A stretch of DNA of 64,000 nucleotides from Escherichia coli (GTDB taxonomy: Bacteria; Pseudomonadota; Gammaproteobacteria; Enterobacterales; Enterobacteriaceae): the NCBI RefSeq assembly GCF_003991155.1, contig NZ_CP031293.1. The stretch is one strand, 5' to 3'. Position 1 is the first letter of the stretch. Each line of letters starts with the position of its first letter. The translations under genes were made by a program, and so were the position numbers. Below, piece after piece: positions 35,997 through 36,091 of the stretch. The notes under the pieces were generated by a model, which was not told the DNA's origin, ran no database searches, and saw only the letters and a list, made by a program, of their open reading frames with translations.

Positions 35997-36066
35997 AGAT
36001 GTTGTTCTGCCAATGTTATGCCGCTGCACCCTCAACTTACGTTATCCCAACTTGTGACTGTTATTC

Positions 36067-36091
36067 GGCGCTCCACGGAGCGCCTTTTTTT
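36067..36091. terminator. Bidirectional terminator between malG and psiE
   Basis: ggcgctcc / ggagcgcc hairpin followed by a T-run. Confidence 0.8.

Follow-up and report, generated by a model that had tools for sequence, protein, structure and literature searches.

A natural malG-psiE junction without xylE in Escherichia coli, probably the ancestral arrangement of the locus

The stretch of E. coli DNA analysed here (64,000 nucleotides, hereafter the window) carries malG and psiE side by side, with no xylE between them. This is a common and natural haplotype of the malG-psiE locus, in which the absence of xylE is probably primitive, the gene itself being most likely an accessory cassette of the A, B1 and E lineages. 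The comparisons of sequence and gene order presented below designate the xylE-less arrangement as most likely the ancestral one.

The malG-psiE junction in the window

The initial annotation of this DNA had described malG and psiE as adjacent, with no xylE between them. We confirm this adjacency: the two genes are separated by a spacer of 93 bp (35997-36089), and tblastn (E<1e-3) detected no XylE-like sequence within the 64-kb window. The elements of the locus are as follows.

35106..35996, + strand: malG, 296-aa ORF, maltose ABC transporter permease, last gene of malEFG
35989..36091, + strand: counterpart of the small RNA MalH (malG end, 3'UTR and terminator), base for base the K-12 ncRNA malH at 4242531-4242633
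36067..36091, + strand: intrinsic terminator of malEFG/MalH, hairpin GGCGCTC-CACG-GAGCGCC (36067-36084) followed by T7 (36085-36091)
36085..36092, no strand assigned: empty site, the point in the T tract where K-12 has the 1,797-bp xylE cassette
36090..36500, - strand: psiE, 136 aa, phosphate-starvation-inducible protein, convergent with malG

Both products match their K-12 counterparts in tblastn, MalG at 100% protein identity and PsiE at 100% identity over 136 aa plus the stop. The maximal ORF of psiE extends to 36635, and it is the tblastn alignment that places PsiE at 36500-36090. Its stop codon, which reads TTA on the + strand (36090-36092), shares the last two T of the malG terminator T7. 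The same malG-psiE order, both genes being named and no xylE intervening, is found in the annotation of strain 2016C-3878, to which the window is 99.99-100% identical. This strain lacks both arpA and yjaA.

A search for a deletion scar at the junction revealed no gene remnant, IS or repeat element, and on both sides of the T tract the spacer shows full colinearity and identity with K-12. Since its 93 bp match MalH and the terminator at 100% identity, the spacer is not a scar.

A single terminator and the MalH small RNA

The spacer had also been described as about 94 bp long and as containing a bidirectional terminator. The spacer measures 93 bp and one terminator is present, but its bidirectional character is not supported. 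The terminator scan found a sole terminator-like site in the spacer, reported on the + strand only; its stem counts 7 pairs, 6 of them G-C, and the hairpin (36067-36084) appears in both the MFE and the centroid folds. On the psiE strand the hairpin can form, but it is followed by GAAUAACAG and not by a U tract. With T7 on the + strand and no U tract on the - strand, the element is a canonical terminator for malG and is not canonically bidirectional.

MalH is a 104-nt sRNA composed of the malG 3' end and a Rho-independent terminator (PMC8081044). Its processing by RNase E, its binding to Hfq and its regulation of ompC/ompA have been reported for K-12 only (Iosub et al. 2020, PMC8081044). In the window, the MalH counterpart takes up the entire malG-psiE spacer and is 100% identical to the annotated K-12 malH over 103 nt. 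Both the seed region and the stop codon of malG fall within the homologous part, and the 3' end is formed by the Rho-independent terminator described above (hairpin 36067-36084 plus T7). An Rfam scan of positions 35500-36700 (E<=1) returned no family; MalH has no Rfam model. While the sRNA sequence, terminator included, is that of K-12, its surroundings differ: in the window the 3' end overlaps the psiE stop, whereas in K-12 the xylE promoter region comes next. Across E. coli, the sequence downstream of MalH thus comes in two versions.

Anatomy of the xylE cassette in K-12

In K-12, xylE was placed by the initial annotation between psiE and malG, and the annotation of MG1655 agrees, with psiE at 4240325-4240735, xylE at 4240779-4242254 and malH/malG at 4242531-4243516. 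Alignment to MG1655 around these genes places 1,797 additional bp of K-12 exactly at this junction, the malG-psiE spacer measuring 1,890 bp in K-12 versus 93 bp in the window. The additional segment consists of 276 bp of xylE upstream/promoter region, xylE itself (1,476 bp) and the xylE terminator hairpin with its T5. The left alignment to K-12 stops at 36091 (K-12 4242531) and the right one begins at 36087 (K-12 4240738), so that the two overlap by 5 nt, TTTTT.

Apart from this cassette, which is missing from the window, the two loci are very similar: malG, MalH and the terminator are identical through T7, and psiE is 99.3% identical. In K-12, the T5 of the xylE terminator runs into the psiE stop codon. 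As the cassette brings its own terminator, psiE in K-12 abuts the xylE terminator instead of that of malG, and in both forms the psiE stop sits in the T tract of the convergent gene's terminator. In every host, xylE has a lower GC3 than its flanks (0.54 versus 0.63 in K-12), which fits an accessory origin of the gene.

Distribution among E. coli

We surveyed a collection of 5,426 complete E. coli genomes, where the adjacent form was scored as one contiguous junction match with at least 80% coverage. It was found in 1,786 genomes, and any xylE match, nearly all of them full length, in 3,638. The two sets are almost exactly complementary, adding up to 5,424 of the 5,426 genomes, which implies that xylE-less genomes do not carry xylE at another place. 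The initial annotation had proposed that this strain lacks xylE. For the locus and the 64-kb window this is directly visible; for the rest of the genome it follows by inference from these counts and from near-identical genomes. A relocation of xylE to a chromosomal or plasmid site outside the window is very improbable. It could be entertained because the window is only 64 kb of the genome and because one xylE match of the collection is on a plasmid; yet the counts leave room for at most a handful of genomes with both the adjacent form and xylE, and the window itself has no XylE-like ORF.

Absence of xylE had been viewed as a feature of this strain. It is instead common to a whole lineage, and more likely a primitive absence than a loss. 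Reference strains CFT073 (B2), 042 (D) and IAI39 (F) are xylE-less with the 93-bp spacer, while K-12 (A), O157:H7 (E), O26 (B1) and strain H5 carry the gene. The three xylE-less references share with the window the gene order, the spacer and identical MalG (WP_001252058.1) and PsiE (WP_000202902.1). The flanks of IAI39 are 100% identical to those of the window over 688 and 469 nt, whereas CFT073 and 042 differ from it by only scattered SNPs at the malG-psiE locus, and by lacking the window's 18-kb phage-tail cluster beside lysC. Matches to arpA occur in 4,110 genomes versus 3,638 with xylE, a count that fits xylE missing from the arpA-negative groups and from about 470 arpA-positive, D-like genomes.

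An assembly artefact or a laboratory deletion collapsing the region is hardly credible: no observation speaks in its favour, an identical 1,301-bp junction is shared by many complete genomes of independent origin (human, cattle, chicken, dog and wastewater), and the junction exists in other Escherichia species too.

A different situation is met in E. coli TOE17, where xylE is cut to its first 248 nt with an IS1 beside the remnant; the missing region extends from the remainder of xylE across psiE to yjbE, and pgi comes after IS1.

Lineage-specific xylE is already known. A pangenome study named xylE as one of the carbohydrate transporters for which the B1A sublineage of its EB1A lineage is enriched, and described the carbohydrate-uptake functions there as mainly gained (PMC6896753); the polymorphism has been visible in public annotations since the CFT073 genome. 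The only mildly new point is anatomical: the two ends of the cassette lie in T tracts belonging to two terminators, and three genera have it at one common site. With xylE missing in a third of sequenced E. coli and in most related bacteria, the finding is real but ordinary.

The locus in other Enterobacteriaceae

Outgroups were scanned with PsiE as query, taking one genome per species and the best 80 loci, among which E. coli, E. fergusonii, Salmonella and clade I did not figure. In about 70 of these best 80 Enterobacteriaceae loci, malG adjoins psiE. The adjacency is found in four other Escherichia (E. albertii, E. whittamii, Escherichia sp. E1V33 and MOD1-EC7003) and also in C. koseri, Enterobacter, Kluyvera, Trabulsiella, K. 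pneumoniae, K. michiganensis, K. grimontii, Raoultella, Cedecea and others. Such xylE-less outgroups have a recognisable MalH-like 3'UTR, and the psiE stop usually adjoins the T tract of the terminator. The terminator beside this stop codon is kept in Escherichia, C. koseri, Enterobacter, Klebsiella, Raoultella and Cedecea. The MalH-like blocks ATGCCACTGC..CCCTCAAC and TTGTGACTGT, together with the terminator, are maintained in the malG 3'UTR from Escherichia to Klebsiella; Cedecea keeps the first block (ATGCCACTGC..CCCTCAAC) and the terminator, and Klebsiella/Raoultella display an additional insert of about 100 nt upstream of the blocks.

Of the best 80 outgroup loci, those of the Citrobacter freundii complex and of K. 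oxytoca are the only ones with xylE between malG and psiE. As in K-12, and unlike in the window, which has no cassette, the gene is found there after the malG terminator T tract, at the same point, with a homologous upstream block and with a hairpin and T tract at the psiE stop. The spacing between the malG terminator and the cassette varies, from 0 bp in Citrobacter to about 57 bp in K-12 and about 200 bp in K. oxytoca. In Citrobacter braakii ATCC 51113, the malG-psiE spacer of 382 bp is what remains of xylE after an internal deletion of most of the gene. Still present are the promoter region, a fragment from inside xylE, and the final codons together with the terminator.

Relatives detected by the XylE protein search are patchy (Entomohabitans 88%, K. 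oxytoca 88%, Shimwellia 82%, a Salmonella Choleraesuis entry 81%), and this search gave no near-identical source of XylE outside E. coli.

Ancestral absence or loss of xylE

The xylE-less arrangement is thus shared by the B2, D and F references, by four other Escherichia and by most Enterobacteriaceae, and for this reason is probably the ancestral one. By parsimony, the absence would be ancestral in Escherichia, xylE would have been gained on the stem of A/B1/(C)/E, and the lineage of the window would probably never have carried it. K-12 and other A/B1/E strains possess a self-contained 1,797-bp cassette seated inside the T tract of the malG terminator.

The junction itself does not tell the direction of the change. 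A deletion between the T7 of the malG terminator and the T5 of the xylE terminator would recreate it, so that a clean junction is compatible with either gain or loss. An ancestor with xylE may thus have lost the whole cassette precisely, through slippage, or by illegitimate recombination, from one T tract to the other, a scenario that we regard as rather doubtful although several observations speak for it. Microhomology of 5-7 nt (TTTTT) exists at both ends of the K-12 cassette, and the D strain 042 has K-12-like flanks, yet no xylE. Moreover, xylE diverges between genera as much as its flanks do, as expected from long vertical residence, and its alleles in E. coli, with the mosaic tract of O26 described below, are as deep as the species. 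On the other hand, this scenario requires one and the same clean deletion to have arisen separately in each of at least four other Escherichia species, in E. coli D, in F/G/B2, and dozens of times across the family. Furthermore, actual losses are messy: those that can be demonstrated, the C. braakii remnant and the IS1-bounded truncation in TOE17, leave scars.

A gain of xylE, the reading that we prefer, also has to accommodate the state of the flanks. When the SNPs between K-12 and the window were polarised over about 700 bp on each side, no foreign-flank signature of xylE import was detected, the flanks being E. coli-like, and 042, although xylE-less, has the flank SNPs of K-12 in common. 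As the K-12 flanks contain no foreign stretch, the gain must come from a donor with Escherichia-like flanks or through crossovers at the cassette ends. Distances of xylE among E. coli, Citrobacter and K. oxytoca equal those of malG, and consequently they identify no donor.

Within E. coli, xylE diversity reaches 3%, higher than that of malG in the same strains. Together with the inter-genus distances, this diversity suggests that the xylE-bearing allele is old. In O26 strain RM8426, 28 of the 40 xylE differences from K-12 are concentrated at nt ~450-890, with a local divergence of about 6%. This indicates a recombinant tract that would derive from a more divergent xylE allele and, in turn, implies that the gene pool of Escherichia contains xylE alleles of greater divergence.

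These elements could also be combined differently. In a broader reading, to which we attach only limited and tentative credit, xylE would be a terminator-to-terminator cassette representing an old presence/absence polymorphism at one site, the T tract common to the malG terminator and the psiE stop, in at least three genera (Escherichia, Citrobacter and Klebsiella), spread via highly conserved flanks by homologous recombination and/or subject to repeated clean removal through recombination of the two terminator T tracts. If this is true, the T tracts of intrinsic terminators would constitute scarless gain/loss junctions for single accessory genes.

Other differences along the window

Several other segments of the window differ from reference strains. 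The largest is an island of 18 kb (44743-62818) between lysC and yjbD, missing in K-12, CFT073 and 042 and of which IAI39 has part. According to the annotation of 2016C-3878, it encodes a Mor-family activator, holin, lytic transglycosylase, tail sheath, tail tube, tape measure (with an internal stop), baseplate and tail-fibre proteins, a nucleotidyltransferase and a slipin-family protein. As no head or replication genes are annotated there, the island resembles a degenerate Mu/P2-like prophage or a gene cluster of tailocin type.

Close to the junction, the psiE-yjbT intergenic region (36586-36642) has 57 nt in the window versus 112 nt in K-12, and O26 and O157 annotate a hypothetical ORF of 144 bp in the longer version. 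Downstream of pgi, directly in the pgi-yjbE interval (41217-41227), K-12 is about 133 bp longer than the window. In the yjbL/yjbM region (17307-17813), about 500 bp have no megablast match to K-12; IAI39 has a single DUF2713 gene of 1,005 bp there and K-12 has yjbL and yjbM. Finally, a yjbI/SopA-family gene (26224-28088) is present in the window between malM and ubiC; IAI39 and 042 annotate its product as a SopA-family protein, whereas K-12 has only a pseudogene and CFT073 lacks the gene.

Xylose uptake and significance of the polymorphism

E. coli takes up xylose by two systems, the low-affinity proton symporter XylE and the high-affinity ABC transporter XylFGH. In our collection, xylFGH was present with at least 80% query coverage in 5,405 of the 5,426 genomes. 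Given what is established for both systems, xylE-less strains should rely on XylFGH for xylose uptake: only the low-affinity symporter is missing and XylFGH is nearly universal, so that high-affinity uptake should remain.

The significance of the finding is small: xylE is a dispensable, lineage-specific accessory gene, and about one sequenced strain in three lacks it, like the one studied here. Because the arrangement of K-12 is probably derived, this strain should not be taken as the reference state for the malG-psiE locus. The cassette bounded by T tracts also offers a tidy case of one gene being present or absent without leaving a scar.
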